Shown here: positions 7,676 to 40,363 of the stretch, one piece after another
How positions within the stretch are numbered: position 1 is the first letter of the stretch
How the letters are laid out: every line of letters begins with the position of its first letter
Assembly: GCA_002420005.1 (NCBI GenBank)
Contig: DIHE01000126.1
Location: forward strand, 77,536-141,535
Length of the DNA: 64,000 nt
Direction of reading: 5' to 3'
Source of the DNA: Holophagales bacterium UBA5704
GTDB taxonomy: Bacteria; Acidobacteriota; Thermoanaerobaculia; Multivoradales; UBA5704
The notes under the pieces: generated by a model
What the model saw: only the letters and a program-made list of their open reading frames with translations
Told to the model about the DNA's origin: nothing
Database searches by the model: none
Program-made: the position numbers and the translations under genes

Positions 7676-9535
7676 CTAGGGCAACGGGTCCGGCTCACGC
7701 AAGGTGGACCGAGGCGGCGTCGCCACCTCCCCCGACTGCAACTGCCACAGGTCCGCATACGTGCCGCCGCGGGCCAGGAGGTCGTCGTGGTGCCCTTCCT
7801 CCACGACGGCGCCGTCGCGCAGGACGAGGATGCGGTCGGCGTGGCGGATGGTGGAGAGGCGGTGGGCGATGATCAGGGCGGTGCGGCCGGCGGTCAGGGC
7901 GGAGAGGGCCTGCTGGATGGCCCGCTCGGTTTCGGTGTCCACGGCGCTGGTGGCTTCGTCGAGGAGGAGGATCGGTGCGTCTTTGACGATCGCCCGGGCG
8001 ATCGACAGGCGCTGGCGCTGGCCGCCGGAGAGCTGGATGCCCCGTTCTCCCACCGGCGTGTCATAGCCCTGCGGCAGCGAGACCACGAAGTCGTGGAGCT
8101 GGGCGAGCCGGGCGGCCCGCTCGACCTCTGCGAACGGGGCATCGCCGTTCACGTAGGCGATGTTCTCCCGGATGGTCCCGTGGAACAGGTAGACCTCCTG
8201 GCTGACCAGGGCGATGTTGCGCCGCAAGTCGGCCAGGGGGATGTCGCGCACGTCGTGGCCGTCGAGGCGCACGGTGCCGTTGTCGACGTCGTAGAAGCGG
8301 AGAAGGAGCTTGATCAGGGTCGACTTGCCCGCCCCGGTGGGGCCGGCCACGCCCAGCGTTTCGCCGGGGGCGATGCGGAAGGTGAGGTCGCGCAGCACCG
8401 GCTCGTCCCCGCGTCCACGGGCATAGCGGAAGGAGACGCCGTCGAAACGGATCTCGCCCTGCGCCCGGCCGAGCCGGATCGGATGGGCCGGCTCGGCGAT
8501 GCGCGACGGGGTGTCGAGCAGGCCGAAGATCCGCCGCGAGCTCGCCTTGGCCCGCTCGAAGTCGTCGAGGGTGGTGCCGAGCCGGGTGATCGGCCAGAGC
8601 AGCCGCTCGGTGAGCATGGCGAAGAGCACCAGCTCCCCGGCGCTCAGAATCCCCGAGCCGTTGAGCACCCAGTAGCTCCCCACCAGCAGGACCCCGGCGA
8701 AGCCGATCACGATCAGCATCCGGATGACCGGGATGTAGGCCGCAGAGTAGCGGATCGCCGCGAGGTTCGACCGCCGGTAGTCCTCGGAGACCTGGCGCAC
8801 CCGCTCGGTTTCGAACCGCTCGGCGGTGAAGCTCTTGATCACGTGGATGCCGGCGATGTTGTTCTCCAGCCGGCTGGCGAGCGCGCCGACGCCGTCGCGC
8901 ACCCGGCTGTAGCGCGGCGCGATCAGGCGCTGGTAGGTGATGCCTCCCCACAGGATGAAGGGGACCGGGAAGAGCGCGACAAGCGACAGCTGCCAGGAGA
9001 TCGGGATCATCACCGCCATCGAAAAGGCGAAGAGCACGCCGACCTGGAGCATCTCGTTGAACCCGGTGTTCAAGAAGCGTTCGAGCTGGTTCACGTCGTC
9101 GTTGAGCAGGGCGAGGATCTCGCCCAGGCGGTGCTCCTCGAAAAAGGAGATCTCGCGCGCCTGCACCTGGTTGTAGGCGTCCATCCGCAGGTCGTGCTGC
9201 ACGGTCTGGGCGAGGTCGCGGAAGGCGCTCTGGTAGAGCCACTCGAACAGGCTCTCGAAGAAGAAGATGACGACCGAGAGACCGGCGAGGACGACCGCCA
9301 GGCTCCACGGATCGCGCGTGCCGGCGAGGCGGGAGATCCAGCCCGGCGGCGCGCCGCGCAGGGAGTCGATGACCCAGCCGACCAGGAGCGGCGGCATGAG
9401 GTCGAGGATCTTGTTGGTGATGCTCGAGCCGCAGGCGAAGAGAAACGCGCCGCGGTAGGTCTGGAGATACCGGAACAGCCGCCGCATCGGGCGCCCGGCG
9501 AGCGGGAGGTGGGTGGGGACCGGGCTCTGGCTCAT
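7676..9535 (-). CDS. ABC exporter, fused permease/ATPase (ABCB/MsbA-like)
   Basis: Six-TM N-terminal half, Walker A GPTGAGKST, signature LSGGQRQRLSIARA and Walker B ILLLDEATSA. Confidence 0.9.
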   Translation of the reverse strand: MSQSPVPTHLPLAGRPMRRLFRYLQTYRGAFLFACGSSITNKILDLMPPLLVGWVIDSLRGAPPGWISRLAGTRDPWSLAVVLAGLSVVIFFFESLFEWLYQSAFRDLAQTVQHDLRMDAYNQVQAREISFFEEHRLGEILALLNDDVNQLERFLNTGFNEMLQVGVLFAFSMAVMIPISWQLSLVALFPVPFILWGGITYQRLIAPRYSRVRDGVGALASRLENNIAGIHVIKSFTAERFETERVRQVSEDYRRSNLAAIRYSAAYIPVIRMLIVIGFAGVLLVGSYWVLNGSGILSAGELVLFAMLTERLLWPITRLGTTLDDFERAKASSRRIFGLLDTPSRIAEPAHPIRLGRAQGEIRFDGVSFRYARGRGDEPVLRDLTFRIAPGETLGVAGPTGAGKSTLIKLLLRFYDVDNGTVRLDGHDVRDIPLADLRRNIALVSQEVYLFHGTIRENIAYVNGDAPFAEVERAARLAQLHDFVVSLPQGYDTPVGERGIQLSGGQRQRLSIARAIVKDAPILLLDEATSAVDTETERAIQQALSALTAGRTALIIAHRLSTIRHADRILVLRDGAVVEEGHHDDLLARGGTYADLWQLQSGEVATPPRSTLREPDPLP

Positions 9536-9654
9536 GGCGGCATCCCTCTCCTGGAGGGCCGGAGTCTATCCGATCGCCCCACCGTCCTCCTCGTTCTCTC
9601 GACCCCGGCTCCACGCACCGGCTGGAGGCAAGGTGTTACAGGTTGGGTATGATC

Positions 9655-10099
9655 TGCGACAACCCCCCTTGTCCGACGGCCGCCACCGCGAAATCGCCCA
9701 ACCAACACGGCTGACGTGCGACAAGCTCCAGCCGACCGTGGAACGGAAGCACCCTTTCGGCCGGTGCTTCGCTGCTTGTTGCGACAAGGAAGCGACACAC
9801 GGCCAACAGACCCGCCCGTTTCGCGCCAACGAGGGGTCCATCTGCGACAAGATCGGGCCAAGTTGCGACAACTGGAGGTTGTCCTGCGTCGACTCGCCGC
9901 GATTCGCGCCACGAAACGCGACACTCTGCGACAAACCATGCCGCTCGACCGAGCCGGCGCCTCCTGTTTGTCGCAAGTTGCCGATGTTTCGCGACAAGCT
10001 CAGGCGTTCTGCGACAAGTCAGGCGCTCGTCGTCAACGAATCGAGAGATTCGTGGACAGGTCAGGTGATTCTGCGACAAGTTGCGGTGAGCTTGTCGCA
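9655..10099. repeat. phased array of TGCGACAA / TTGTCGCA motifs (13 GCGACA cores) in a divergent intergenic region
   Basis: Direct TGCGACAA copies start at 9655, 9717, 9780, 9843, 9864, 9927, 10010 and 10072. CGCGACAA is at 9990. Inverted TTGTCGCA copies are at 9968 and 10092. GCGACAC variants are at 9791 and 9917. Spacings between direct copies are 62, 63, 63, 21, 63, 63, 20 and 62 bp. Confidence 0.9.
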
Positions 10100-10100
10100 G
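10071..10100. promoter_or_regulatory. perfect inverted repeat CTGCGACAAG-N10-CTTGTCGCAG (candidate operator) about 80 bp upstream of the NAT start
   Basis: Read directly: 10-nt arms at 10071-10080 and 10091-10100, built from the array motif. Confidence 0.5.
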
Positions 10101-10181
10101 GCTGGCGGGAGCCGGAGACGGGCCGGACGAGGCGCAAGCCAGGAGCGAGGACGCCGCCGGCCGAGGGTACAATCCCCCGCC

Positions 10182-10934
10182 GTGGACGTCTCGGCCTATC
10201 TCGACCGCATCGGCTACCGGGGCTCGCTCGCCCCGTCGCCCGCGACCCTCCAAGCCTTGCAGGAGGCGCATCTGCTCCGCGTCCCGTTCGAGAACCTCAG
10301 CATCCACGCAGGGCAGCCGATCGTCCTTGACCTGGATGCTTTGTTCGACAAGGTGGTGACGCGGCGGCGCGGTGGCTTCTGTTATGAGCTGAACGGACTG
10401 TTCGCCGCCCTGCTCCGTACACTGGGATTCGAGGTCGCCCTCCTCTCGGCCGGCGTGGCGCGCGGGGACGGCTCGTTCGGGCCGGAGTTCGACCATCTGA
10501 CCCTGGCGATCCATCTGGAGGAGCGCCGGCTGGTGGACGTCGGTTTCGGCGACTCGTTCCGCCGCCCGTTGCGGCTCGATGCACGGGAGGAGCAGGTGGA
10601 GGGAGAGCGGTCCTATCGCCTCGACGCGGAGGAGGACCGGCTGGTCCTGCGGCAGCGCAAGGACGCCGAAGGTCCGTGGGAGGCGCAGTACCGGTTCACC
10701 CTCCAGCCGCACGAGCTGGCGGAGTACGCGGCGATGTGCCGCCATCATCAGACGTCGCCGGAGTCTCCGTTCACCCGCAAGAGGCTCTGCTCGCTGGCTC
10801 TGCCGGACGGCCGGCTGACGCTGAGCGACGGGACGCTCCTCACCACCCGCGGCGGGGTGCGGGAGGAGCGGGTGCTGGCGGACGAGGCGGAGCAGGCGAC
10901 GGTGCTGCGCGAACGGTTCGGCGTGGTGGTGTGA
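10182..10934 (+). CDS. nat: arylamine N-acetyltransferase
   Basis: VDVSAYLDRIGY N-terminus, VPFENL, and catalytic Cys context RRGGFCYELNGLF. GTG start at 10182; the long upstream extension of the track ORF is rejected. Confidence 0.8.
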   Translation: MDVSAYLDRIGYRGSLAPSPATLQALQEAHLLRVPFENLSIHAGQPIVLDLDALFDKVVTRRRGGFCYELNGLFAALLRTLGFEVALLSAGVARGDGSFGPEFDHLTLAIHLEERRLVDVGFGDSFRRPLRLDAREEQVEGERSYRLDAEEDRLVLRQRKDAEGPWEAQYRFTLQPHELAEYAAMCRHHQTSPESPFTRKRLCSLALPDGRLTLSDGTLLTTRGGVREERVLADEAEQATVLRERFGVVV

Positions 10935-10947
10935 GGAGCACAACGCA

Positions 10948-12012
10948 ATGGCCTGGGAAGAGAACGAAGCACAGCGGCATCAATTCATCCTCGACGGGCA
11001 GCAGCACGCCGATTTCTTTCTGACCCCGCTGGCCGATCCCGCCGGCAAGTCGGTCCTGGTGCTCGGCGCGGGCGCCGGCACGGACTGCCTGTGGGCGCTG
11101 CGCCAGGGAGCGCACGAGGTGGTGGGGCTCGACGTGCTGGAACAGGACCTCGGGGCGCTACGGGCGGCGGCGGTGCAGTGCGGGCTCGATCCGGGGCGCG
11201 TCTCGTTTCACCGCAAGAGCCTCGCCGAGGCGCCCGCGCTGGGGCGGCGCTTCGACCTGGTGCTCTCGAACAACGTCTTCGAGCACGTGGCGGACCTCCG
11301 CGGCGCCTTCGCCGCCTGCGCCCAGGTCGTCGAGCCCGGCCGCGGCCGGGTGGCGATCTTCTCCGCGCCGCTCTTCTATGCCTCGAGCGGATCGCATCTG
11401 CCGACCGCGCCCTGGGAGCATCTGTGGGGCGATCCGGAGACGCTGCGCGACCGGCTGCTGGCGAGCGGGGCGCTGCGCCCCGGCCATGCCCTGGAGGACC
11501 TGAGCCTGGGCGAGTACATGGACCAGGAGATCTGCCTCAACCGCGCGCGCCTCGCCGATTCGCTCGACGCCATCCGGGCGAGCGGCCTCACCTGGCTGCA
11601 TCTGTCGCTGCTGCCCGACCGTGCGCTGGCCGCGCTGCCGCGGTACCTGGAGCCGATCCGCCGCCGTTGTCCGGTGGACCTCGATGTGGCGGACCTGGCG
11701 GTCGAGGGGTATGGGGTGGAGCTGGTCCTGCCGGCCGAGGCGGCGGAGGGGGTGGGCTATCGGCCGGTCGCCGCGGTGCGCCTCGACGACGAGCGGGGCC
11801 GCCACGGTGCGGACCTTGCGGCGGCCGAGGCCATGATCGAGGCCGGCAAGAAGGAGGCGGCGGAGCTGCGGCTCCAGATCGCCGGCCTGCAGGAGGGGAT
11901 GGGCCATCTGCATGCCCTCCTCGCCCGGGTGGAGGCGAGCTGGAGCTTCCGGCTCGGCCGTGCCCTCACCGCGCCGGGGCGCTGGCTGCGCGCGCGCTCC
12001 GGCGGCGGTTGA
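10948..12012 (+). CDS. class I SAM-dependent methyltransferase with a C-terminal coiled-coil region
   Basis: Motif I VLVLGAGAGTD, post-I VVGLD, VLSNNVFEHV, and a C-terminal heptad-like segment. It starts 13 nt after nat. Confidence 0.7.
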   Translation: MAWEENEAQRHQFILDGQQHADFFLTPLADPAGKSVLVLGAGAGTDCLWALRQGAHEVVGLDVLEQDLGALRAAAVQCGLDPGRVSFHRKSLAEAPALGRRFDLVLSNNVFEHVADLRGAFAACAQVVEPGRGRVAIFSAPLFYASSGSHLPTAPWEHLWGDPETLRDRLLASGALRPGHALEDLSLGEYMDQEICLNRARLADSLDAIRASGLTWLHLSLLPDRALAALPRYLEPIRRRCPVDLDVADLAVEGYGVELVLPAEAAEGVGYRPVAAVRLDDERGRHGADLAAAEAMIEAGKKEAAELRLQIAGLQEGMGHLHALLARVEASWSFRLGRALTAPGRWLRARSGGG

Positions 12013-16462: not shown

Positions 16463-17685
16463 CGCCAGACCCTCGTCTGCGGGTGATGGGTCCGCCAGTC
16501 GAACCAGGCGTCGAGCAGGACGTAGACCCGGGTCAGCCGCCGGCCCGCCAGGGGACCGCTCAGGGCCTCGCCGGCGAAGCTCCAGGTGCTCCCGGTCTCG
16601 GCGTCCAGCAGGACGAGCGGCGGCCCGCCCGGCCGGGCGAACAGATCGAGGGTGCGGCCGTCGATCCGCCGGTCGAAGACCCGGAGCGAGCGGCCGTCCT
16701 CGCCCACCACCAGCAGCAGCGGAACCCCCGCCAGGGTGTCGAGCACGGGGCTTTCCCGCCGCAGCCTGGCGACGGAATAGGCCTTGGAGGCCCCGGGCAG
16801 GGCGATCCCCGCGACCAGCTCGCGGGGATCGAACGGATCGCCCGGTCTCTCGGGGGTCACCACCGGCAGCTTCGCCGTCTCCGCTTCCCAGTCGTGCGAG
16901 AACTCCCGCCACGGTGCGCCGTCGTCCGGCCGCAGCACCCGCCCTCCCGGCTGTTCCCGCTTCCAGAGCCCGAAGGAGATCTCGTCGTGGTGCACGAGGT
17001 CCAAGGTGCGGCCCTTGAGCGGCCCGAACAGGGCTTCGCCGGTCACCTGCTGCCACCATGATCCCGTCTGCTCGTCCTGCATCAGAAAATTCTGGTTGTT
17101 GATTCCCGTGAGGTGGAACCGGAGGGTCCGCCCGTCGATCTCTGCTCTCCACACCAGACCGGTGTGACAGAGCGTTCAGTAGGTGACGGCCACGGGGACG
17201 CCGCCGACCACATCCTGCACGATGTGATGGTAGGCGACCTGGCGCACCGGATAAGCCGCGGTGTCGCCGTTCAGGGTGACCGCGAGCACCGCCTCGTCCT
17301 CTGCGACCCAGGCGGCCTCGGCGGCGGTGGCGTAGCGGGGGTCCGGCAGCGGCGCGAACATCCTCTCGAAGAGGTTCTGGCGGGATTGCCAGGCGGTGCC
17401 GAGGAGGGGCAGGAAGGCGAGGACGAGGAGGACCCGGCTCCTCCACCGTGCGCCGCGCCACAGCACCCCGGCGCACAGGACCGCGGCGGCCCCTGCGCCG
17501 AGAGTCAACCCGGGGGCGAGGCGGCGCATCCAGAACGCCACGGCGAGCCCGTCGGGTGTCTGCGGCGCGAACGGACGGATGAGCCAGACCGGCAGCGCCA
17601 CCAGGGCGAGACTCACCAAGACCAGACACACGAGACCGGCGCCCGCCAGACGGCGGAGGCCCGGCAAGGACCGCGGCTCAGACAT
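16459..17685 (-). CDS. DUF3179 family membrane-anchored protein with an in-frame UGA (17178-17176), candidate selenocysteine (UxxC)
   Basis: Track ORFs 17176-17685 and 16459-17154 share one frame and are separated only by TGA plus 7 sense codons. The joined sequence …VGGVPVAVTY-U-TLCHTGLVWRAEIDGRTLRFHLTG…QTGSWWQQ matches the DUF3179 core as I recall it. Confidence 0.6.
17145..17172 (-). other. candidate bacterial SECIS hairpin
   Basis: The mRNA CUCUGUCACACC-GGUCU-GGUGUGGAGAG forms 7 bp (one G.U), one bulged G and 4 more bp. The hairpin starts 4 nt after the UGA, and the apical GGUCU loop begins 15 nt after it. Confidence 0.5.
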
Positions 17686-18109
17686 GTTTCTCTCCTTTCG
17701 ATCGCGCCGAGGGCTCCGGCGCCGGCACGGCGACCAGCTTGCGGAACAGCTCGTCGAGCGCCTGCTCGGGGGCCCGGCAGAGGCCGGAGTGGACGGGCGA
17801 GACCTGCACCACGGTGCTGCGCGGGGCCACCAGCCAGTGGAAACGCTCGCGCCGCGACAGGCGGGCGATGGGGCCGGCGTCGGGAAGGCCGGCGCAGATG
17901 CGGGGGACGGCCTCCAGGTGGCGCCGGATCGTCTCGACGTCCGTCTCCGGCCAGAGCGCGCGCAGGCGGGGTGCGTCCACGGTGACCCGCGCGGCGAGCA
18001 CGTCCCGCTCGAGGCAGAACAGGATCACTCCGGCGTTGAGCTGCTCGCCGCGCTCCACCCGTGGCACCACGCGCAGAATCGCGTAGTCAAACGAGCTGGG
18101 CGCGGGCAC
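17678..18109 (-). CDS. DUF3037 domain protein
   Basis: FDYAILRVVPRVERGEQLNAGVILFC is the characteristic DUF3037 N-terminus. The GTG at 18109 lies 6 nt after GGAGG (alternative GTG at 18133). It overlaps the downstream gene by 8 nt. Confidence 0.7.
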   Translation of the reverse strand: MPAPSSFDYAILRVVPRVERGEQLNAGVILFCLERDVLAARVTVDAPRLRALWPETDVETIRRHLEAVPRICAGLPDAGPIARLSRRERFHWLVAPRSTVVQVSPVHSGLCRAPEQALDELFRKLVAVPAPEPSARSKGEKHV

Positions 18110-18869
18110 GCTCCGCCTCCTCGACGAACGCACGGGCGGCGGCGAGCCGTCCGGTCAGAAAGGCCAGGTAGCCGGCGCGCCGCCCGGCCGGCGTAAGGTC
18201 CCCCGGAGCGGCGCGCAGCCATGCGTCCGGGACCTCGTCCAGGATCGCGGCGAGCCGCGCCGCGGGGAGCAAGGCAGGAAGCCGCTCGCCGGCTTCCTCC
18301 AGCCGGCTCGCCCACGGGAGCAGCACGTGCTCGCGCACCGCGGCGAAGCGGGTCTTCGCCATCTCCTCGACGTTCTGCCAGGCGTGATGGAAGTACAGGG
18401 CCGCTCCGTGGTCGATCAGATACGGAGCGCGGTGCCAGAGCAAAAGGTTGGGATTGCGCGGCGTGCGGTCGACGTTGGTGACGAGGGCGTCGAACCAGAC
18501 GATCTCCGAGGCGAGCTCCGCCGCGAGGGAATCACCCGCCGCCGGATCGAACATCACCGAGCCCGGCAGATAGTCGAGAGCGAGATTGCAGCCGATGCTC
18601 GCCTTGAGCAGCTCGCGGATCTCCGGGTCGGGCTCGTTGCGGCCGAGCTCCACGCCGACCTCCATGAGCACCAGCTCGGGCACCGGAAGGCCCAGCGCGC
18701 GCCCGATCTCTCCGGCGACCAGCTCGGCCACCAGGGCGAGCGGCCCCTGCCCTGCGCCGCGGAACTTGAGGACGTAGAGCCCGTCGTCGTCCGCCTCGAC
18801 GAGCGCGGGCAGCGAGCCCCCTTCACGGAGGGGGGTGACGTAGCGGGTGGCGGTGACGGTGCGGAGCAT
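18087..18869 (-). CDS. HipA-like serine/threonine kinase family protein (the type usually paired with DUF3037)
   Basis: Kinase-like catalytic loop VTNVDRTPRNPNLLL and metal-binding YLIDHGAAL, 260 aa, immediately upstream of DUF3037. Confidence 0.6.
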   Translation of the reverse strand: MLRTVTATRYVTPLREGGSLPALVEADDDGLYVLKFRGAGQGPLALVAELVAGEIGRALGLPVPELVLMEVGVELGRNEPDPEIRELLKASIGCNLALDYLPGSVMFDPAAGDSLAAELASEIVWFDALVTNVDRTPRNPNLLLWHRAPYLIDHGAALYFHHAWQNVEEMAKTRFAAVREHVLLPWASRLEEAGERLPALLPAARLAAILDEVPDAWLRAAPGDLTPAGRRAGYLAFLTGRLAAARAFVEEAERARAQLV

Positions 18870-19050
18870 GGACCTGCGGCAGAACTGTACCTCAGATGCC
18901 GCGGCCGGTCATCTCGCACCGCAAGACGGCGCCTTCGGGCGAGACGGATGCCCCCGAAAGAGGAAAACCCTGCGATCTTTCGAAATGCGGCCGTTTTGCG
19001 GCCGTGTTCCCTTCACTTCTCGGCTCTTTCCTCCACTTTTGCCGCCAGAA

Positions 19051-32166: not shown

Positions 32167-32432
32167 GGGCGGCTCGGGCGGTTGAGACACCTGCGCGCCG
32201 CTCTGCAGACCACACATCGCGTTGCATGGGGGTGAGGACTCCGAGCGAGGCACTCCCGAGGCTTCCAAGAGATTCCCGAGGCGCCTCTGGGGACAGGAAT
32301 TCCTTCGCGCACCTGCGGTAGAATAGGGAGATGAAAACGCTGTCGACTCTGCGCAGGCCGGTGGCCCTCAGCCGGCTTGCGACCTGCTGCCCTTTTAGAT
32401 TTAGATAACTCTGACTTGGCGTGGCGTGCATC

Positions 32433-35135
32433 ATGTCTATCATCACCAATGAAATGACCTTCGACTTCGACGGGCTGATCCAGCTCCTCGCCGGCCACCT
32501 CTATTCCGAGAAGAAGGTCTTCATCCGCGAGCTCATCCAGAACGCCCATGACGCCATCCAGCGCCGGGCGGTAAAGGACCCGTCATTCAATCGAGAGCAG
32601 GGTCACATCGACATCCTGACCGACCTGACCGCCTCGCCTGCGCGCATCATCTTTCGCGACAACGGCCTCGGCATGAGCGTCGAGGACCTGGAGGAGTTCC
32701 TCTCCACGATTGGGAAGTCCGGCACCAAGGCAGCCAGGGACGAAGCGCCGGAGGTGATCGGCCAGTTCGGCATCGGCTTCCTGTCCGGCTTCGTCGTCGG
32801 CGCGCGTGTCGAAGTTCGCACCCGCTCCTGGGAAGCGGCGCCGGATCAGGCCTGTCTGTGGGAGAACTCCGGGAACAAGGACTACACCATCACGCCCTGC
32901 ACGCTCGCCTACGTGGGGACCGAGGTTACCGTTCACCTTCGCTCCGCCGAAGATCGTGGCCTGTTGCACGAGGATGCAGTCAAGAAGGTCATCCGTACCT
33001 ACGCGGACATGCTTCGCATTCCCATCCACCTGAACGACCCAGGGCACCACAGCGCCGCGATTAACACCATGGTGATGCCGTGGGAACGCAATGGCATTTC
33101 CGAAACGGAGATGCGCTTCGACAGCATGATCTATCTGGAAAGAACGGTGCCCGACAGCGTTCTCGAGGTGATCCCGATTCGCATCAATGATCCTGCTGCC
33201 GACGGCAAATCCACCCTTCATGCGGAGGGTCTGCTCTACATTACCCGCACTCGCTTGATCGCGACGGATGCCCCCCGCACCGTGCGGGTTTTCCTTAAGC
33301 GCATGTTCCTGTGCGAGGAAGCCAAGGAGATTCTGCCGCCCTGGGCACGCTTCATCAATGGCATCATCAATACGCGCAGTCTTTCGCCCAACGCTGCCCG
33401 TGACAACTTCACCCGCGACGCCAGTTTTACATCTCTACGTGATCGCCTCGGCGACCTCATCGTGGACCACTTCGAGCATCTGCGGGAAAAGGAACCCCAG
33501 CGCCTCTCAGAGATCCTTGCATATCACGACCTTGGCATCAAAGCCGCCTGCCACTACTACGACCCGTTCTTCGACAAGTTCGCCCATCTCCTGGAATGGC
33601 GGATCAATGCCAAGTCTGCCGCCGCCCGTGACCGCAACCGGCCGAGCGGTCGCCGTGTCCTCAGCGCCGATATTGGGGCCAATTACACTTGGGCGACTCT
33701 GCCGGAGATCCTTGCCGCCCTCCCCTCCCCGGAAGGCGGCGGTGCCAAGCGCTTCCCCTGCTTCACCACCAGCAGCTCCGCCAACCAGTTCTTCGAGATG
33801 GCCGATGCCGCCGGAACCACCGTAGTGGACGCCAGTTACTATTTCGAGGCGGAGCTGCTCAAAACCTGGGCCGAACGGCGCAAAGCGGTGCTCTCTCTCG
33901 TCTATGTAGACCGCGAGGACGACCCCGCGGTCTTCCGCGAGATCGATCCCGCCCAGGACCGCGCCGTCCGTGCCCTCGCCCAACAGATGTCTCACTACCT
34001 CCGGCCTGGTGGCACCGGTCGCCTGCGTGTCGAACCGCGGCGTTTCCAGCCGGAGTCCCTGCCCGCCGTGCTCAAGAGCAGCGAGGTCGCCCAGGGCAGC
34101 AGGAAGGCCCGTAGCATCCTCAGCGATCCGAATAGCCCATCTGATCTTCGCGCAATGGCGGAGGAGATGCTCCTCCTCAGCCGAAATGCCGACATGCGGA
34201 TGAGTATCAATGCGGCCAATCCTCTCATCCGCACCCTCGCCAGCCTCGCCGAGATCAATCCCGAGGACGACGACCTGCTCCACCTCATGCAATGTGTTTA
34301 TAACGATGCCATCCTCTACAACCAGGAGCTCATGACCCCGCGCAATGCGCAGATTTTTCACGAGCAGTTCCAGCGGCTCATGAACAAGTCCCTCCAGTTC
34401 CTGGTGGAAAAGGGCGACCTCGCCCGCGAACGCGCAGAGCTGGACAAACAACGCCGCCAGACGGAGACCAAACGGAAGCGTGAGCGGAAGCATCTCACCG
34501 CCTTCCTGATGACTCCCTTCGCCAAGGAGTTCGACACTGCCCGCGAAGCCGTCCGCCTCGCGGTCGAAGACCGCCTCGGCTGCGAGCTGCGCACAGCCGA
34601 TCAGAAGACCTTCGAGGACCTTATCCGTGGCAACGTCGAGGCGCACCTCGACGATGCAGACTTTTTTATTGCCGATGTCACCGGAGCCAATCCCAACGTC
34701 ATGATGGAATTGGGAGCCGCCCTGTACGGCCGCGGCCATCAGCCAAGCCTTCTCATCGCCCGCGTCGCGAAGAGCGGCGACAAGCCGGAGCTCCCTGCGG
34801 ATCTCGCCGGGCACATTACCGGCGGCCTCTACGTCGCGAGCCAGAGCGAGGTGGAGATTGCTGATTTGCTGGAGGAAGGCTTCCGCAAGCACGAGCGGCT
34901 GGGCATTCTGCTCAAGCGCGAAGGCCGCGAGGACTACATCTCGCCGCAAACCCTTCGTGCCTGGACGAGGGACATCCTCATTTCGAAGACCCTCTACGAA
35001 CGGCTCAGCGACGCTTATCCCACTGTGAGCGCCTGGAGGAAGGTCAATGAGAAACAACTGGAGATCCAACTGATCGGAGAAGCTGATCTCGCCTCCGTGG
35101 TGCTGAGGCGCATCAAGGAAAACCTTCCCGGCTGA
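32433..35135 (+). CDS. Hsp90/HtpG paralogue (GHKL ATPase plus middle and C-terminal domains) fused to a C-terminal TIR/nucleoside-2-deoxyribosyltransferase-like domain
   Basis: LLAGHLYSEKKVFIRELIQNAHDA, DNGLGM, GQFGIGFLSGF and RVFLKRMFLCEEAKEILPPWARFINGIINTRSLSPNAARD parallel the Hsp90 N and middle signatures. A C-terminal coiled-coil is followed by AFLMTPFAKEFD…ADFFIADVTGANPNVMMELGAAL. GC is much lower than the flanks. Alternative GTG start at 32421. Confidence 0.75.
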   Translation: MSIITNEMTFDFDGLIQLLAGHLYSEKKVFIRELIQNAHDAIQRRAVKDPSFNREQGHIDILTDLTASPARIIFRDNGLGMSVEDLEEFLSTIGKSGTKAARDEAPEVIGQFGIGFLSGFVVGARVEVRTRSWEAAPDQACLWENSGNKDYTITPCTLAYVGTEVTVHLRSAEDRGLLHEDAVKKVIRTYADMLRIPIHLNDPGHHSAAINTMVMPWERNGISETEMRFDSMIYLERTVPDSVLEVIPIRINDPAADGKSTLHAEGLLYITRTRLIATDAPRTVRVFLKRMFLCEEAKEILPPWARFINGIINTRSLSPNAARDNFTRDASFTSLRDRLGDLIVDHFEHLREKEPQRLSEILAYHDLGIKAACHYYDPFFDKFAHLLEWRINAKSAAARDRNRPSGRRVLSADIGANYTWATLPEILAALPSPEGGGAKRFPCFTTSSSANQFFEMADAAGTTVVDASYYFEAELLKTWAERRKAVLSLVYVDREDDPAVFREIDPAQDRAVRALAQQMSHYLRPGGTGRLRVEPRRFQPESLPAVLKSSEVAQGSRKARSILSDPNSPSDLRAMAEEMLLLSRNADMRMSINAANPLIRTLASLAEINPEDDDLLHLMQCVYNDAILYNQELMTPRNAQIFHEQFQRLMNKSLQFLVEKGDLARERAELDKQRRQTETKRKRERKHLTAFLMTPFAKEFDTAREAVRLAVEDRLGCELRTADQKTFEDLIRGNVEAHLDDADFFIADVTGANPNVMMELGAALYGRGHQPSLLIARVAKSGDKPELPADLAGHITGGLYVASQSEVEIADLLEEGFRKHERLGILLKREGREDYISPQTLRAWTRDILISKTLYERLSDAYPTVSAWRKVNEKQLEIQLIGEADLASVVLRRIKENLPG

Positions 35136-35152
35136 CCTTCCCTGTAGTCCTC

Positions 35153-36283
35153 ATGGCCTACCACGACGAACTTTTTAAGCAAGGTCGGCAAGCCGGCTTG
35201 GCTGATCGCGTGGCTGAAGCGGCGCTGCTCTACCGCAGTGCCGCTTCAGCCGCCCTTGAAGTCGGCGACCGTACCGCATGGTTCAAGTGCATGGTGCGGG
35301 CAGCATCTGCCACAGGCGACAAAGGCGACATACGAGCCAGCCTCGCCCTGCTTCTAGAAGCTCGCGAGTCGGAGCCGGAGGATGCCCCGCAGTTCGAGGC
35401 ATGGTCGGCTCGGAGAGAAATTTTTTTCATCACACAGTCGATCCGCCCAGAACGATCTCGGCTGAAACAACTCCTCGCCGACCTCCGGTTTTACGCCACA
35501 ACCCACAGTGCTCGGGCAGCCGAACTTCTCTTACTCGAAGGGAGTCTGAATTCCTTTTGCGGAGACTGGCGTACCGCCCTCGCCTGTTTCGAGACCGCAT
35601 GGCAGGCCAAAGATGGACACGACCTCAAAGCGTACAACGCTTACATTGCCGCCTCGCACTGCCTGCGACTCGGCCAGCCTTCCGCCTGCCGGGATTGGAT
35701 TTTCGCGCTTGACCAATGCGAGGATAAATCGGTTCCCCGCTGGAGCGCTGAGAGCACCCTCCTTCTCGCCCGCGCCGAGGGCCAACCTTTCGCTACCCTC
35801 CTATCAAATCTGCGCACTTACACTGACCGCGCAGCCGGTGTCCAGCGCGCCGATACCGCCGACATTGTACGTGAGCTGGTCGCCCGCACCCACCTTCTCG
35901 ATCCCAATGCGGGCGACCCTGCTGCCGACTTTCACCCAAGCCGCTCCGAGCTCCGGCAGGCACCCAGAAACCGGCAGGTTGTCCACAGCCGCTACGACGC
36001 CCACTTGCTCCACCTCGACTACCGGCTCGCCTGCCTCCGCTACGTCGCCAGCGTTCCGGCCGTGGATGATTTTTATTACTATCAACCCCAGCAAGTGCCG
36101 GCCAGCCTCGTACCAACAGACCTCGCTCAGTTTCAACGCCGGCTCCACAAAGCCCGTGCCGCTGTCGCCAGCACCCTCCGCTACGCCCGCCACCTCGATA
36201 CCCTCCTCGAATGCGACTACCGCCAACGTGAGGTCCAGGCCCGTAGCGAGCGGATTGAGGAGATCGCGCGGGCAGTCGGTTGA
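35153..36283 (+). CDS. uncharacterised all-alpha (TPR-like?) protein, likely co-transcribed with the Hsp90 paralogue
   Basis: It starts 17 nt after the upstream stop on the same strand and shares the low GC. The sequence is helix-rich and Ala/Leu/Arg-rich with no motif I recognise. Confidence 0.55.
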   Translation: MAYHDELFKQGRQAGLADRVAEAALLYRSAASAALEVGDRTAWFKCMVRAASATGDKGDIRASLALLLEARESEPEDAPQFEAWSARREIFFITQSIRPERSRLKQLLADLRFYATTHSARAAELLLLEGSLNSFCGDWRTALACFETAWQAKDGHDLKAYNAYIAASHCLRLGQPSACRDWIFALDQCEDKSVPRWSAESTLLLARAEGQPFATLLSNLRTYTDRAAGVQRADTADIVRELVARTHLLDPNAGDPAADFHPSRSELRQAPRNRQVVHSRYDAHLLHLDYRLACLRYVASVPAVDDFYYYQPQQVPASLVPTDLAQFQRRLHKARAAVASTLRYARHLDTLLECDYRQREVQARSERIEEIARAVG

Positions 36284-36503
36284 TCCGCCTCGACCAGTAG
36301 TTTCGACCAGTGGTTGGGGTAAGCAGCGTACGCAGCACAGTTGTTCGGCATTCCGCAGCCGCGCGTCTCCGATGCTCAAGAACTACAAGCTCAGCCGCTT
36401 CTCCTCCGAGCGCCCTCCTGGTGGACCGCGATGTCGAGATCGTCATCCGGCCCAAGGCCAAAGGGCACGCCGCGCGCGTCGTCTCTGTGTCGGTTGCTTT
36501 ACC

Positions 36504-36533
36504 TTGACGCAGCATACGGCAAGGCCGTAGAGT
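36504..36533 (+). promoter_or_regulatory. possible promoter TTGACG-18 nt-TAGAGT for the toxin-antitoxin operon (predicts a leaderless GTG start)
   Basis: -35 at 36504-36509 and -10 at 36528-36533. The GTG start at 36541 is 7 nt after the -10. Confidence 0.3.
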
Positions 36534-36540
36534 CTGACCT

Positions 36541-36855
36541 GTGTACACGGTCGTTGAGACACCTCTCTTCCAGCGGCTCGCCGACGACCACTGGTCGGAC
36601 GAGGAGCGGAGCGCCTTCGTGGCATTCATCGCGGCCCATCCTGAGGCCGGCGAGGTGGTCCCGGGCTCAGGAGGGGTGCGCAAGGTTCGCTGGGGCCTCG
36701 GCGGGCGTGGTAAACGCGGCGGCGTGCGCGTGATCTACTTCAACCGGCTGACGGCGGGTGAGATCTGGCTTCTCGTCTTGTACGCGAAGTCGGAGGCCGG
36801 GAACATCCCGGCTCACGTCTTGCGGCAGATCAAGGAGGACATTGAGCATGGCTAA
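36541..36855 (+). CDS. type II toxin, RelE/HigB-2-like
   Basis: …GSGGVRKVRWGLGGRGKRGGVRVIYFNRLTAGEIWLLVLYAKSE… is typical of HigB-2/RelE-family toxins. The toxin precedes the antitoxin. Confidence 0.75.
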   Translation: MYTVVETPLFQRLADDHWSDEERSAFVAFIAAHPEAGEVVPGSGGVRKVRWGLGGRGKRGGVRVIYFNRLTAGEIWLLVLYAKSEAGNIPAHVLRQIKEDIEHG

Positions 36856-37156
36856 GGTTTCCGGGAAATCCAGGCTCGCCACCTCCGGCGAGGAGTTGGG
36901 CGAGCAGCTTCTGCAAGCGGTGCGGGAGATGAAGGCCGGATTGCGCGGCCGTGTGCATACGCCGGAAAGGTCCAGCCTCGTCGAGGCCCGGCTGAGGACG
37001 GGACTCTCGCAGGCCTCGTTCGCGGTTCTGATGGGGGTTTCCGTGCGCACGCTGCAAGACTGGGAGCAAGGCCGCCGAGAGCCTTCCGGCGCGGCGAAGA
37101 CTCTCATCAAGGTGGCGACCCGGCATCCGGAGGTTCTGCAAGAGCTCGCGCTGTAA
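36848..37156 (+). CDS. type II antitoxin, XRE-HTH (HigA-2-like)
   Basis: ARLRTGLSQASFAVLMGVSVRTLQDWEQGRREPSGAAKTLI. It overlaps the toxin gene by 8 nt (ATGGCTAA). Confidence 0.75.
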   Translation: MAKVSGKSRLATSGEELGEQLLQAVREMKAGLRGRVHTPERSSLVEARLRTGLSQASFAVLMGVSVRTLQDWEQGRREPSGAAKTLIKVATRHPEVLQELAL

Positions 37157-37294
37157 GATCTCCGGCGGCTCCTCGGTTCGATCCGCTCGTCAGGTCGGCG
37201 CGGGCCTCAGGCGTCCGCACGGCCAGGCACGACGTGAGTCTGGTCCATGAGCGGCTGCGAGCTGCGCGAGAGGGCGCCCTCGGACCCGCCGCCC

Positions 37295-37801
37295 CTAGTC
37301 CACCTCGGCCTTGATCGACAGCGCCAGAAGCGAGCCGTCGGCCTGGCGGGTTCCGCGGCCTTCGGCGCGGGTGGGACGGCCGGCGGCCACGGAGCGGGCG
37401 ATCTGGGCGAGGGAGTGGAGGTCGCCGCGCGCCTCCCACCGGGTCTGGGCGTTGACCACGATCCGGGTGCCACCGGCGAGGGTCAGGGAGCTCTGGCCGG
37501 CGGTGGTCACGGCTCCTTCGAACTCTTTGCCGGCCCGCGGCGCCTTGCCGCCTCCCTTCCCCCCCTTGCCTCCTTTGCCCCCTTTGCCACCACGGTTGTC
37601 GCCGCCGTTGTCGTCGTTGCCCCGGGTCTGGTTGTCGTCGGTGAGAGCGGCTGTCGAGCTGGCGGTGGTCGAGAAGGCCGGGGCGTCGTCGGTGAACGCG
37701 GGTTCCGTGGGGCTGGAGCCCTGCGAGCAGCCGATGGTGCCGAGCGCGAGGGTGGAGAGGGAGAGCAAAGCGATAAGCTGGAGGGAGCGATGGCGGTTCA
37801 T
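37295..37801 (-). CDS. lipoprotein with a (GGK)n low-complexity linker
   Basis: Lipobox LALGTIGC after a signal peptide, then GGKGGKGGKGGKGGGK, then a C-terminal beta-rich domain. Confidence 0.65.
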   Translation of the reverse strand: MNRHRSLQLIALLSLSTLALGTIGCSQGSSPTEPAFTDDAPAFSTTASSTAALTDDNQTRGNDDNGGDNRGGKGGKGGKGGKGGGKAPRAGKEFEGAVTTAGQSSLTLAGGTRIVVNAQTRWEARGDLHSLAQIARSVAAGRPTRAEGRGTRQADGSLLALSIKAEVD

Positions 37802-37810
37802 GGTATCTCC

Positions 37811-40363
37811 TTGTGGTTTGGTCGAGTTCTGTTCCGTCTGTTGAGACAGGCGAAGGCCGCCGGTGGAACAAACTTCTTTTGCGGTCTTCTGGTGCTGGCT
37901 CTGGTGGCCTCTCCTGTCGCCGGGCAGACGCTCGACCAAGCCGTTGCGCTGCACCAGGCGGGGCGCCTGCGCGAGGCGCTCCAGGCCTACCGGCGGATCG
38001 CCTCCGCCCACGCAGGTCAGGAGCCGGGGCTGGCCGCGGCGGCGCTCAACAACGCCTGCGTGCTGCAGCAGGACCAGGGCGCCCTGCGCGCCGCGCTGCC
38101 GGACTGCGAGGAGGCGCTGCGCTTGCGCCGGATCGAAGGAGACCCCTTGTCGATCGCCGAGACGGTGAACAACCTGGGGCTGATCCTGGAGACCCTGGGC
38201 CGCACCGGCGAGGCGGAGCGCCACTACCGCGAGGCGCTGGCGATCAACCGCAAGCTCGGCGAAGCCGAATCGGTGGCGATGAACCTGGGCAACCTCACCG
38301 CGATCGCGGTCCAGAAGGGCCGCTATTCCGAGGCCATGCGCCTCTCCACCGAGGCCGCCACGGTGGCCGCCCGCCATCCGGATGCGCCCTGGGCCGAGGA
38401 GCAAGGGCAGATCGCGCGGATCAACCAGAGCGTCGTGCTGCGCAAGGTGGGCGCCTACCGGGAGGCGCTCGATCTCTCTCGGGATCTCCTGAAAAGCAAC
38501 CGGCTGGACCCGCGGCGGCGTGCCGCACTGCTGGTGAATACCGGCGTCTTCTATCGCAACCTGGGAGATCCGGTGAGCGCGGTGGAGAGCTTCCGCGCCG
38601 CCATCGCGAGCTATCGCGCGCTGGGGGACACCGCGGGGCTGTCCAACGCCTGGCTCAACCTCGGGATCGCCCTGCATCTGAATCTGGCCCGCCCGCGCGA
38701 GGCCGAGGCCGCCTACCGGGAGGCGCTCCGTCTCGCCGAAGCGGACGGCAATCAGATCGAGGCGGTCGAGGATCTGTTCTATCTCGGCCGCCTCCTCCTG
38801 GCGCAGGGCCGGCTGGACGAGGCGGAGGCGGCCTTCCGGCGCTGCCTGGACGGGGCGACGCAGAGCGGCTCGGTCGATGGGCGGTGGTCGGCCCGCGAGG
38901 GGCTGGGGCGGATCGCCGCGGCGCGCGGGGACCTGCCGGGCGCCCTGGCGCACCTCCTCGGTGCCCTGGACGAGATCGAGCGGGTACGCGCCGGCCTCGA
39001 CCGCAGCGGCTGGCGGGCCGGCTATTTCGGCGACAAGCGCTCCGTTTATGCCGCGACGGTGGACGTGCTATGGCGGCTCGCCCGGCTCCGGCCGCGGGAA
39101 GGCTTCGCCGGCCGCGCCCTGGAGGTGGTGCAGCGCGCCAAGGCGCGCGACCTGCTCGATGCCCTGGGACCCGGGGGCGCTGCGTTGACCCCGGCCACCG
39201 CCGCCGCGATCACCGCCCGGGCCGACGGCACCCTGCTCGAATATTTCCTGAGTGAGGACCGCCTCTATCTCTGGACGATCCGTCGCGGTGCGCTGCAGAT
39301 GGCGGACCTCGGCCCCAAGACCCCCGTGGCGGCGGACGTTCTGCGGGTGCACCGGGCGCTCGCCGGGGGGACCGAGCCGGACGCGGCGGCGGTCACGCGG
39401 CTCTCCCGCACGCTCCTCGGGCCGGCCGGTCCTCTGGGTGCGAAGGGGGAGACGCTCCGCATCGCGCCCGACGGGCTGCTGCACTATCTCCCGTTCGAGA
39501 TCCTCGCGGCGCCCGCGGCCGACGGCGCGCCCCTGGTCGAGCGCCACGCCATCTCCTACCTGCCGAGTGCCTCCCTGCGGGGGGCCGGTGACGCCACCGC
39601 CTCCCCCACCCTCCGCCTCGCCGGCTTCGGCGCCCCGCTTCCCTCGCGCCCGACCGCCGGGGCAACCCTTGTGGTGGCCCAACCCCTACCGGCCGCCGAG
39701 CGGGAGCTCACCGCCATCGGGAGCCTCCTGGGCGGATCGAGCGAGCGGCACCTGGGCGCACAAGCGACTGAGCGGGCCTTCCGCCAGGTGTTCGCCCGGG
39801 GCGCCCGGGTGGTGCACTTCGCCACCCACACCGTGGTGGAAGAACGGCCGGGCGGTGGCGCCTCCATCCTCCTCACCGCAGCGGGCGGAGACGACGGCCT
39901 CCTGCAACCGCGGGAGATTGCCGGCCTCACCGGCTCGTGTGACCTGGTGGTGCTCGCGGCCTGCAGCACGTCCCTCGGAGCGGGGGAGGAAGGAGGAGCC
40001 CTGGTCTCCCTCACCGGCTCCTTCCTCGCCGCCGGAGCCCCCGCCGTCGTGGCCACCCTCTGGGACGTGGGCGATGCCGCGACCGCCGTCTTCATGGAGC
40101 AGCTCTACGCCCAGCTCGGCCGCGGCCTTCCTCCGGACGAAGCCCTGCGCCGGGCGAAGCTGCGCCTGCGCGCCGATCCGCGCTGGAACCGGCCTGGCCT
40201 CTGGTCGGGCTATGTCCTGGTGGGAGAGGCGCCGCCGGTGGCGCCGCGCCGGGAGCTGCGGCTGGCCCTGATCTGGGGAGGCGCGGCGGGGCTCCTGCTG
40301 CTCGGCCTCGCCGCGCGCCGCCTCACTCGAAGACGATCGCGCCGTTCTCCATCGCCAGCTTGA
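37811..40363 (+). CDS. TPR-repeat plus CHAT (caspase-like) domain protein with a C-terminal TM anchor
   Basis: Multiple TPR-like repeats (…AERHYREALAINRKLGE…). CHAT His/Cys dyad contexts are VVHFATHTV and DLVVLAACSTSLG. The tail is hydrophobic. The start is uncertain (TTG at 37811; the ATG at 37790 would overlap the divergent gene). Confidence 0.7.
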   Translation: MWFGRVLFRLLRQAKAAGGTNFFCGLLVLALVASPVAGQTLDQAVALHQAGRLREALQAYRRIASAHAGQEPGLAAAALNNACVLQQDQGALRAALPDCEEALRLRRIEGDPLSIAETVNNLGLILETLGRTGEAERHYREALAINRKLGEAESVAMNLGNLTAIAVQKGRYSEAMRLSTEAATVAARHPDAPWAEEQGQIARINQSVVLRKVGAYREALDLSRDLLKSNRLDPRRRAALLVNTGVFYRNLGDPVSAVESFRAAIASYRALGDTAGLSNAWLNLGIALHLNLARPREAEAAYREALRLAEADGNQIEAVEDLFYLGRLLLAQGRLDEAEAAFRRCLDGATQSGSVDGRWSAREGLGRIAAARGDLPGALAHLLGALDEIERVRAGLDRSGWRAGYFGDKRSVYAATVDVLWRLARLRPREGFAGRALEVVQRAKARDLLDALGPGGAALTPATAAAITARADGTLLEYFLSEDRLYLWTIRRGALQMADLGPKTPVAADVLRVHRALAGGTEPDAAAVTRLSRTLLGPAGPLGAKGETLRIAPDGLLHYLPFEILAAPAADGAPLVERHAISYLPSASLRGAGDATASPTLRLAGFGAPLPSRPTAGATLVVAQPLPAAERELTAIGSLLGGSSERHLGAQATERAFRQVFARGARVVHFATHTVVEERPGGGASILLTAAGGDDGLLQPREIAGLTGSCDLVVLAACSTSLGAGEEGGALVSLTGSFLAAGAPAVVATLWDVGDAATAVFMEQLYAQLGRGLPPDEALRRAKLRLRADPRWNRPGLWSGYVLVGEAPPVAPRRELRLALIWGGAAGLLLLGLAARRLTRRRSRRSPSPA

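Follow-up and report, generated by a model that had tools for sequence, protein, structure and literature searches.

Transcriptional regulators of the OmpR/PhoB type (ArcA, PhoP, SARPs) recognize asymmetric direct repeats spaced at 10-11 or 21-22 bp, in a variable number that is kept in phase with the helix. In the BvgA system, up to six head-to-head dimers assemble on one face of the DNA with their centers 22 bp apart, nucleating upstream and extending cooperatively through weak sites to the promoter (PMC7250471). Here we analyze a phased array of GCGACA-core motifs located between two divergent genes, in a 64-kb stretch of DNA (hereafter, the window) from Holophagales bacterium UBA5704, an uncultured member of the Acidobacteriota of the Thermoanaerobaculia type (GenBank assembly GCA_002420005.1, contig DIHE01000126.1, positions 77,536 to 141,535). 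Coordinates are given as window positions, and L-numbers designate loci of other genomes centered on an arylamine N-acetyltransferase (NAT) gene. The array is a tandem repeat in decay, with a 21-bp unit repeated approximately 22 times and a higher-order organization of 63 bp, and we assign a probability of about 0.5 to the reading that it constitutes a one-face cooperative binding platform for a regulator of both divergent promoters.

The phased array is real and lies far beyond chance expectation. Thirteen GCGACA cores occur within 445 bp, against 0.27 expected (Poisson P ~4e-18), and the exact motif TGCGACAA is found ten times on the two strands of the same segment (0.007 expected; Poisson P ~8e-29). 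Expected counts were derived from the window outside the array, which holds 38 GCGACA cores and a single exact TGCGACAA, at 61462 on the minus strand and within a gene; clustering of other 8-mers was seen nowhere in the 64 kb. A one-mismatch k-mer enrichment statistic was swamped by low-complexity GC k-mers, and exact k-mer counts and the Rayleigh test were used in its place. Eight exact copies read on the forward strand (starts in Table 1, the last of them at 10072), accompanied by one CGCGACAA and by two inverted copies, the second TTGTCGCA lying at 10092 in row 21, and the direct copies are spaced by 62, 63, 63, 21, 63, 63, 20 and 62 bp. A preliminary description of the region had located all these copies and the two GCGACAC variants correctly, together with the spacings, and its claims of an excess of the core over chance and of helical phasing on one face are borne out as well. 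None of the 13 sites deviates by more than 1.4 bp from a 20.85-bp lattice (Rayleigh Rbar = 0.985 at 20.85 bp, p ~3e-6, and 0.944 at 10.43 bp). When the regions upstream of 168 NAT loci were scanned blind for periods between 9.5 and 24 bp, the window obtained the top score, with a period of 10.4 bp. Eleven lattice rows are strong (0, 3, 6, 9, 10, 13, 15, 16, 17, 20 and 21), nine of them on one strand, and the GCGACAC variants sit on half-steps, forming GCGACA pairs at 10-11 bp (9780/9791 and 9917/9927) that retain the same helical face.

Writing out the region in rows of 20.85 bp shows that lattice points without a strong core hold degenerate copies, recognizable as CGCGCCAA in row 8, TGCGTCGA in row 11 and CGCGCCAC in row 12. 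A second subtype, (g/a)(t/a)TTCGcGcCAa, is common to row 8 and to rows 2, 5, 12, 16 and 19 (at ~9692, 9754, 9900, 9984 and 10046), and each row carrying it directly precedes a strong-site row. Scored with a position weight matrix (PWM) derived from the strong sites, the weak lattice rows average -1.5, against -6.6 +/- 1.3 for random positions (P ~0.0005), and phase-shifted lattices score approximately -7.5 at shifts of 4-15 bp and -4.3 and -3.6 at 16-17 bp. Masking of the strong cores leaves a self-similarity that is greatest at a lag of 63 bp (z 2.7) and next at 42 bp (z 2.2), followed by 125 and 105. The degenerate copies on seemingly empty lattice points and the residual self-similarity at lag 63 thus identify the array as a decayed tandem repeat, whose 63-bp higher-order unit is made up of a weak variant, a strong site and a decayed unit and was amplified at some stage. 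The preliminary description had held that this was not a simple tandem duplication, a view overturned by the row layout, the PWM scores and the masked autocorrelation; its companion statement that sequence between copies is not conserved applies to the flanks of the strong units and not to the weak rows, which are degenerate copies.

Decay has affected the parts of the unit very differently. Pairwise identity among the 11 strong units is 0.977 in the 8-bp core, with 87 of 88 core positions intact, against 0.324 in the other 13 positions, a contrast that neither uniform decay nor chance is able to yield, and unit spacing has been kept to ~1 bp while spacer divergence is saturated. A constant core and fixed spacing set against near-random flanks bear the hallmark of purifying selection, acting both on a short recognition sequence and on the helical register of its copies, and such core-only conservation points to sequence-specific recognition. 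Judging from this pattern, 11 units appear to have had a core of 8-11 bp (yTGCGACAAg) kept perfectly constant by selection, and about six a weaker variant (TTCGcGcCAa), the rest having presumably drifted to random. Six independent assemblies, all of one population or species, agree over the intergenic region at 100% identity, which indicates that the array is stable and not slipping. The metagenome-assembled genomes GCA_003504885.1 and GCA_031976355.1 carry the locus, and SRR1706180 is among the source samples.

The array lies centrally in a 646-bp divergent control region (9536-10181), between an ABC exporter gene and a NAT gene whose starts (9535 on the minus strand and 10182 on the plus strand) had been correctly placed beforehand. 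Together with the methyltransferase that shares an operon with NAT, these genes look like an export, acetylation and methylation module, for which a role in xenobiotic detoxification is plausible. A predicted -10 hexamer, TACAAT, sits 8 nt ahead of the GTG start codon of NAT (10182), with no -35 consensus, and the blastn alignments of the window with its relatives begin precisely there, at 10168. The ATG of the exporter (9535) is preceded by a GGAGAGGG ribosome-binding site. Comparable -10-like hexamers occur 6 nt ahead of the NAT start in L001 (TAGACT), L289 (TAGAAT) and L430 (TAGACT), and 6 nt ahead of the first gene of the NAT operon in L230 (TATAAT); the TAnAnT hexamers are contained in the spans 10168-10184 of the window, L001:2092-2109, L289:494-509, L430:4989-5003 and L230:2074-2088. 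Since a -10-like hexamer lies 6-8 nt before the start codon, the NAT-methyltransferase transcript would be leaderless, and the hexamers of L001, L289, L430 and L230 imply that leaderless mRNAs may be made in those lineages too. Both predicted promoters are devoid of a -35 element, which suggests that they may depend on an activator. The terminal inverted repeat of the array is situated ~82-110 bp upstream of the predicted NAT transcription start.

Table 1. Coordinates of the array, its sites and the flanking features in the window, and of 21-bp arrays at NAT-centered loci of other genomes
Feature	Position	Strand	Remarks
Whole array, ~22 units on a 20.85-bp lattice (rows 0-21)	9650..10110		Lattice layout, weak-row PWM test, masked autocorrelation, Rayleigh statistics
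Strong site, row 0 (ATCTGCGACAAC)	9655..9662	+	
Strong site, row 3	9717..9724	+	
Strong site, row 6	9780..9787	+	Half-step variant AGCGACAC 11 bp on, 9791-9798
Weak site, row 8 (CGCGCCAA)	9822..9829	+	Second subtype, TTCGcGcCAa
Strong site, row 9	9843..9850	+	
Strong site, row 10	9864..9871	+	
Weak site, row 11 (TGCGTCGA)	9885..9892	+	
Strong site, row 13	9927..9934	+	Half-step variant CGCGACAC 10 bp upstream, 9917-9924
Strong site, row 15, inverted (TTGTCGCA)	9968..9975	-	
Site, row 16 (CGCGACAA)	9990..9997	+	
Strong site, row 17	10010..10017	+	
Perfect terminal inverted repeat, CTGCGACAAG-N10-CTTGTCGCAG, rows 20 and 21	10071..10100		NAT-proximal end of the array
MsbA/SmdA-like ABC exporter	7676..9535	-	Divergent from the array
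Predicted -10 hexamer TAGACT, ABC exporter	9563..9568	-	Read from sequence
Predicted -10 hexamer TACAAT, NAT-methyltransferase operon	10168..10173	+	Read from sequence
NAT (PF00797), 250 aa	10182..10934	+	
S-adenosylmethionine-dependent methyltransferase	10948..12012	+	Weak ArsM/UbiG-like matches; operon with NAT
L001 (Thermoanaerobaculia), 16-20 units of exactly 21 bp, CCCATC-NN-GATGGG	L001:1667-2100		Directly upstream of NAT, in register into -10 TAGACT
L005 (Anaerolineales metagenome-assembled genome, MAG), 21-bp array with 63-bp higher-order unit TAACAAATCAGGCCTGTTGAG and inverted end	L005:3480-3920		Upstream of a PEMT-like methyltransferase and NAT; not palindromic throughout
L230, 12 near-perfect 21-bp units, GAACATG-N4-CATGTTC, 18-bp palindrome GAACATGCGGCCATGTTC	L230:1581-1995		Upstream of an operon of leaderless Zn-ribbon, NAT and methyltransferase genes
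L432, 19 units of 21 bp (GGCGnCTCGCCnnAACCTATC), 63-bp higher-order period, two inverted units at end	L432:7527-7970		GGCGnCTCGCC plus AACCTATC
L289 (NAT 74% identical, same NAT-methyltransferase operon), weak possible lattice, GGCATCGGGATGCC			Upstream of NAT, at contig edge

The orthologous regions of relatives, whose comparison had been proposed in the preliminary description, are identical in the six same-species assemblies; beyond these, the nearest other NAT is just 74% identical and homology ends at the -10 hexamer, so that the array is not footprintable. Methyltransferase relatives in GTDB genomes have no NAT neighbor and no array, and most close NAT relatives belong to operons with neither a long upstream region nor an array. 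Across 1.16 Mb of NAT-centered loci, period-21 arrays of at least four copies were detected within 1.35 kb upstream of NAT in L001, L005, L230 and L296, the last of which is weak, overlaps a called gene and may be coding. This upstream zone represents 16% of the sequence surveyed, and the array of L432 lies outside it, 2.5 kb downstream of NAT, where an intergenic gap of 1.2 kb accommodates it. The distribution suggests a link of 21-bp arrays to NAT operons, but it is not proof, because the loci were chosen through NAT. In L289, two perfect and three degenerate units are visible and Tandem Repeats Finder detects none, so this array is counted as possible only.

The arrays of L001, L005, L230 and L432 share the 21-bp period, and those of L005 and L432 also share the 63-bp higher-order unit and end in inverted units like the array of the window; three of the four are intergenic and upstream of a NAT-containing operon. 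They differ from it in their motifs, which are unrelated to that of the window and mostly palindromic, and their units are much more homogeneous, which indicates that they are younger. Although L430, L432 and L433 encode NATs ~89-90% identical to that of L001, none of them has the L001 array; arrays can therefore arise quickly, and that of L001 is a recent expansion. A run of ~145 N directly adjoins the array of L005, and a 57-bp direct duplication follows the 21-bp units of L230. An apparent match in L040 proved to be a pentapeptide-repeat gene. Scans for spaced copies, using triples of TGCGACAA (genome and viral contigs) and the L001/L289 core CATCNNGATG (genome contigs), returned among the matches listed unrelated coding repeats, arrays resembling clustered regularly interspaced short palindromic repeats (CRISPR) and dispersed elements, and they are uninformative on homology because any 8-mer occurs in some tandem repeat. 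The Anaerolineae MAG H89_878 carries a dispersed element in at least three copies, each with three 21-bp units (GGGCGCATCGTGATGCTTCAC) and conserved flanks (L303:6630-6700, L359:4890-4952 and L364:20-90), and a fourth copy is present in locus L408 (3560-3630); the element looks like a miniature inverted-repeat transposable element or a repetitive extragenic palindromic-like repeat, and like a phenomenon distinct from the array of the window.

A cooperative protein-loading platform, already put forward in the preliminary description, remains in our view the best reading of the array. The strong cores, mostly 63 bp apart, would nucleate a sequence-specific protein, probably a dimer covering ~21 bp, and the weak in-phase rows would then be filled cooperatively. 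A one-face nucleoprotein filament or looped complex would thereby form over ~460 bp and set the activity of both promoters, so that the efflux pump and the acetylation-methylation operon would be co-regulated. The geometry matches that of cooperative transcription-factor arrays of the BvgA, OmpR or AraC kind, with one face, 21-bp centers and a mixture of strong and weak sites in phase, and the reading draws additionally on the central position of the array between two promoters with a -10 and no -35 element, on the coherent gene set, on the stability of the array among the six assemblies and on the arrays of like architecture that precede NAT-containing operons in L001, L005 and L230. A winged-helix regulator bound head to tail would go well with the 10-11-bp GCGACA pairs and with the predominance of direct copies; a symmetric dimer would be in keeping with the partly palindromic CTTG-N3-CAAG form and with the inverted pair at the end of the array.

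Several observations weigh against such a platform. No regulator gene lies beside the array, and the only recognizable DNA-binding gene in the 64 kb encodes an extracytoplasmic function-like sigma factor, 32 kb away. With 22 lattice positions over 460 bp, the array extends far beyond the length of any characterized transcription-factor array we know of. Its nearest strong sites stop 99 bp short of the start predicted for the exporter (near 9556, minus strand) and 82 bp short of the one predicted for NAT (near 10181, plus strand), no site abuts or overlaps the -35 region, and rows 22-24, toward the NAT promoter, are without a clear motif, so that the layout gives no evidence of RNA polymerase being contacted directly. 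The promoters themselves are predicted from their hexamers, no full sigma-70 consensus promoter having been found in the window. Lastly, the arrays of relatives carry unrelated motifs and that of L001 is missing where NAT is ~89-90% identical, so no conserved pairing of regulator and site is demonstrated. A literature search on the motif, or on 21-bp arrays in this lineage, returned nothing specific.

A bolder proposal, which we hold to be tentative and rather unlikely, is that the region represents an unrecognized kind of control region, in which a dedicated DNA-binding protein would coat ~460 bp of one face through 22 phased sites and form an enhancer- or centromere-like chromosomal filament, a switch for a detoxification module of export, acetylation and methylation. 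Tandem amplification of an operator unit beside NAT operons would then produce this 21/63-bp architecture repeatedly in several phyla, each time with an unrelated motif, as a general and fast route to such platforms; the recurrence of 21-bp arrays with differing motifs beside these operons hints at a wider phenomenon. If the array of the window is a protein-binding platform, few phased operator arrays known from bacterial chromosomes would be longer, and this one is found in an uncultured Acidobacteriota lineage. Its history is readable, from amplification of a 21-bp unit and then of a 63-bp unit to the decay of all but the recognition core, and it provides a natural experiment in the evolution of cooperative regulatory architecture through tandem duplication. 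The array, as a 10-11-bp site or a 63-bp unit, could also serve as bait for a new regulator that may govern xenobiotic acetylation and efflux.

Among the competing explanations, the one that survives best, and that we still regard as clearly improbable, is that of a functionless relic, namely a 21-bp minisatellite generated by slippage and now decaying, with its cores kept by gene conversion or mutational bias. The tandem-repeat origin of the array is clear, and 21-bp arrays come and go quickly in the lineage, where L001 has one, its relatives with ~89-90% identical NATs lack it, and L432 carries one elsewhere in the locus. Neutral decay should, however, strike all 21 positions alike, whereas the core is intact at all but one of its 88 positions amid flanks at 0.32 identity. 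It is implausible that gene conversion was confined to 8 bp among units separated by 21-420 bp, and the spacing has stayed within ~1 bp although the spacers have diverged to saturation, which argues that indels were selected against.

It is very unlikely that the array operates at the RNA level, transcribed as a long leader or as a sponge RNA whose UGCGACAA repeats would titrate an RNA-binding protein in the manner of CsrB. The strand bias of the strong copies would fit such a role, as would the -10-like TATGAT (9648-9653) directly upstream of the first copy and the mildly negative folding z-scores (-2.1 and -2.7). In L289, a GC-rich hairpin followed by TTTTT (L289:455-485), resembling a terminator, lies between the possible array and the NAT promoter, and transcription toward NAT from something upstream may thus occur in that relative. 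The array nonetheless has no Rfam match, neither a terminator nor a consensus promoter was found in the window, and the motif is not preferentially unpaired (unpaired probability of 0.39, against 0.32 elsewhere). The two inverted copies and the strict 10.4-bp phasing fit duplex DNA and not RNA, and NAT has a predicted conserved promoter of its own, right at the start codon.

We give little credence to the possibility that the sites serve a replication initiator or a partition adaptor, either as the remnant of an integrated plasmid or as a chromosomal organizing site. The array has the classic layout of iterons plus operator seen in F, P1, pPS10 and R6K, in which direct repeats recur every two helical turns and inverted copies stand at the promoter end; its 22 rows at 20.85 bp parallel the ~17-22-bp direct repeats of iterons, with their period of ~21-22 bp, and the motif is lineage-specific, as incompatibility determinants are. 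The context argues otherwise, and it is here that the likeness to plasmid iterons or parC centromeres drawn in the preliminary description fails, its remark that no rep or par gene lies nearby holding over the full 64 kb. Pfam annotation of likely genes, chosen by GC content at third codon positions (GC3), detected in the window no Rep initiator gene, no ParA, ParM, ParB or ParR-like domain and no relaxase or integrase, and the gene beside the inverted pair is NAT and not rep, with the ABC exporter adjoining on the other side. No parS site was found with up to three mismatches, no DnaA box (TTATCCACA) with up to two mismatches in 9300-10400, no AT-rich unwinding stretch (the 40-mer of lowest GC content stands at 47.5%) and no GC-skew switch, and neither 72,556 plasmids nor 50,697 phage records show similarity to the array. 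The window is ordinary chromosome, encoding PGK, GAPDH, TsaD, SecG, peptidases and kinases. The F RepE iteron opens with TGTGACAA, but neither this resemblance nor those to the Spo0A box TTCGACA, the ECF41 -35 element TGTCACA-N16-CGTC and the Streptomyces DnaA box TTGTCCACA fits in spacing or phylogeny, and we take all of them to be chance.

There is only a slim chance that the units derive from a core promoter, a 21-bp segment of which would have been amplified into a decoy or reservoir for RNA polymerase or a sigma factor. The window core GACAAG resembles the -10 hexamer TACAAT, and the L001 core CAGATG resembles TAGACT; the L001 lattice runs in register into the -10 hexamer, its last rows merging gradually with the promoter and agreeing with the unit consensus at 10 of 19 positions, and in the window and L001 alike the core retains the A at -11 but not the T at -7. 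With 21 registers to choose from, however, chance alone is expected to give matches of 4/6 and 3/6, the -10 hexamer of the window sits on a half-step, off the lattice, and L289 exhibits no such resemblance.

A coding origin, in which the open frame 9513-10934 would extend NAT at its N-terminus with Cys-Asp-Lys repeats every 21 residues, is effectively refuted, for although this frame of 473 codons meets no stop anywhere in the region and runs in phase with NAT, and six motif copies read CDK or RDK in it, the remaining copies lie in the two other frames, the NAT-phase frame scores -0.5 bits per codon (log-odds) against +0.5 to +0.68 for real genes, all six frames are negative (-0.40 to -0.83 bits per codon), GC3 falls from ~0.95 to 0.6-0.75 across the region (0.71 in the open frame, against ~0.9), a conserved -10 hexamer marks the annotated NAT start, and the 120 NAT homologues listed span 249-308 aa, nearly all 249-260, with the window's own cluster at 250 aa, which leaves no place for a 223-aa N-terminal extension. 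The open frame is thus a high-GC artefact, and the element is, as the preliminary description had maintained, non-coding and DNA-level. A CRISPR array, with its identical repeats of 23-50 bp and unique spacers of uniform length, was likewise rejected: the conserved core measures just 8-11 bp, intervals of 21 bp occur alongside ones of 63 bp, the would-be spacers contain degenerate copies and there is no cas gene.

Elsewhere in the window, a pair of genes for a HipA-like kinase (PF20613) and a DUF3037 protein (17681-18908, minus strand) matches the PADLOC candidate defense pair PDC-M66A/B. A low-GC island at 32200-36900 (0.62 against 0.70) carries genes for a 904-aa GHKL/HSP90-like ATPase with a weak TIR-type match, a 376-aa protein of no family and a RelE-like toxin, and is followed by a 1038-aa TPR-CHAT protease (37247-40363); the region is possibly an acquired defense region.

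Set beside known systems, the array has in common with plasmid iterons (F ori2/incC, P1 oriR/incA, R6K and pPS10) direct repeats of 21-22 bp with a short conserved core in a less conserved unit, inverted copies at the promoter end and a lineage-specific sequence; it differs in having no initiator gene, DnaA box or AT-rich element, in its chromosomal housekeeping context and in being several times longer. In partition centromeres such as R1 parC, pSK41 parC and F sopC, in-phase direct repeats build a continuous protein-DNA superstructure and double as the operator of the adjacent operon. Those units are contiguous and homogeneous (11, 20 or 43 bp), whereas half of the units in the window are degenerate and no parA/parM or adaptor gene accompanies them. 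Lacking defining features of each, the array belongs to neither of these two families, nor to CRISPR arrays or sponge RNAs. Sites of the OmpR/PhoB type comprise two to five repeats near -35 to -100, against 22 units in the window. The BvgA-dependent promoters of Bordetella (Pptx and Pfha) share with the window sites two turns apart on one face and the combination of strong and weak sites, in an array that precedes its dependent promoter (PMC7250471). BvgA binds inverted heptads, whereas the cores of the window are mostly direct and asymmetric, and three to six BvgA dimers cover ~130 bp with the last abutting the -35 region, against ~22 positions over 460 bp that end 82-99 bp off. The array would thus work like known phased multi-site arrays, and what sets it apart is its exceptional length on a chromosome, in a repeat that is half decayed and whose core appears to be still under selection.

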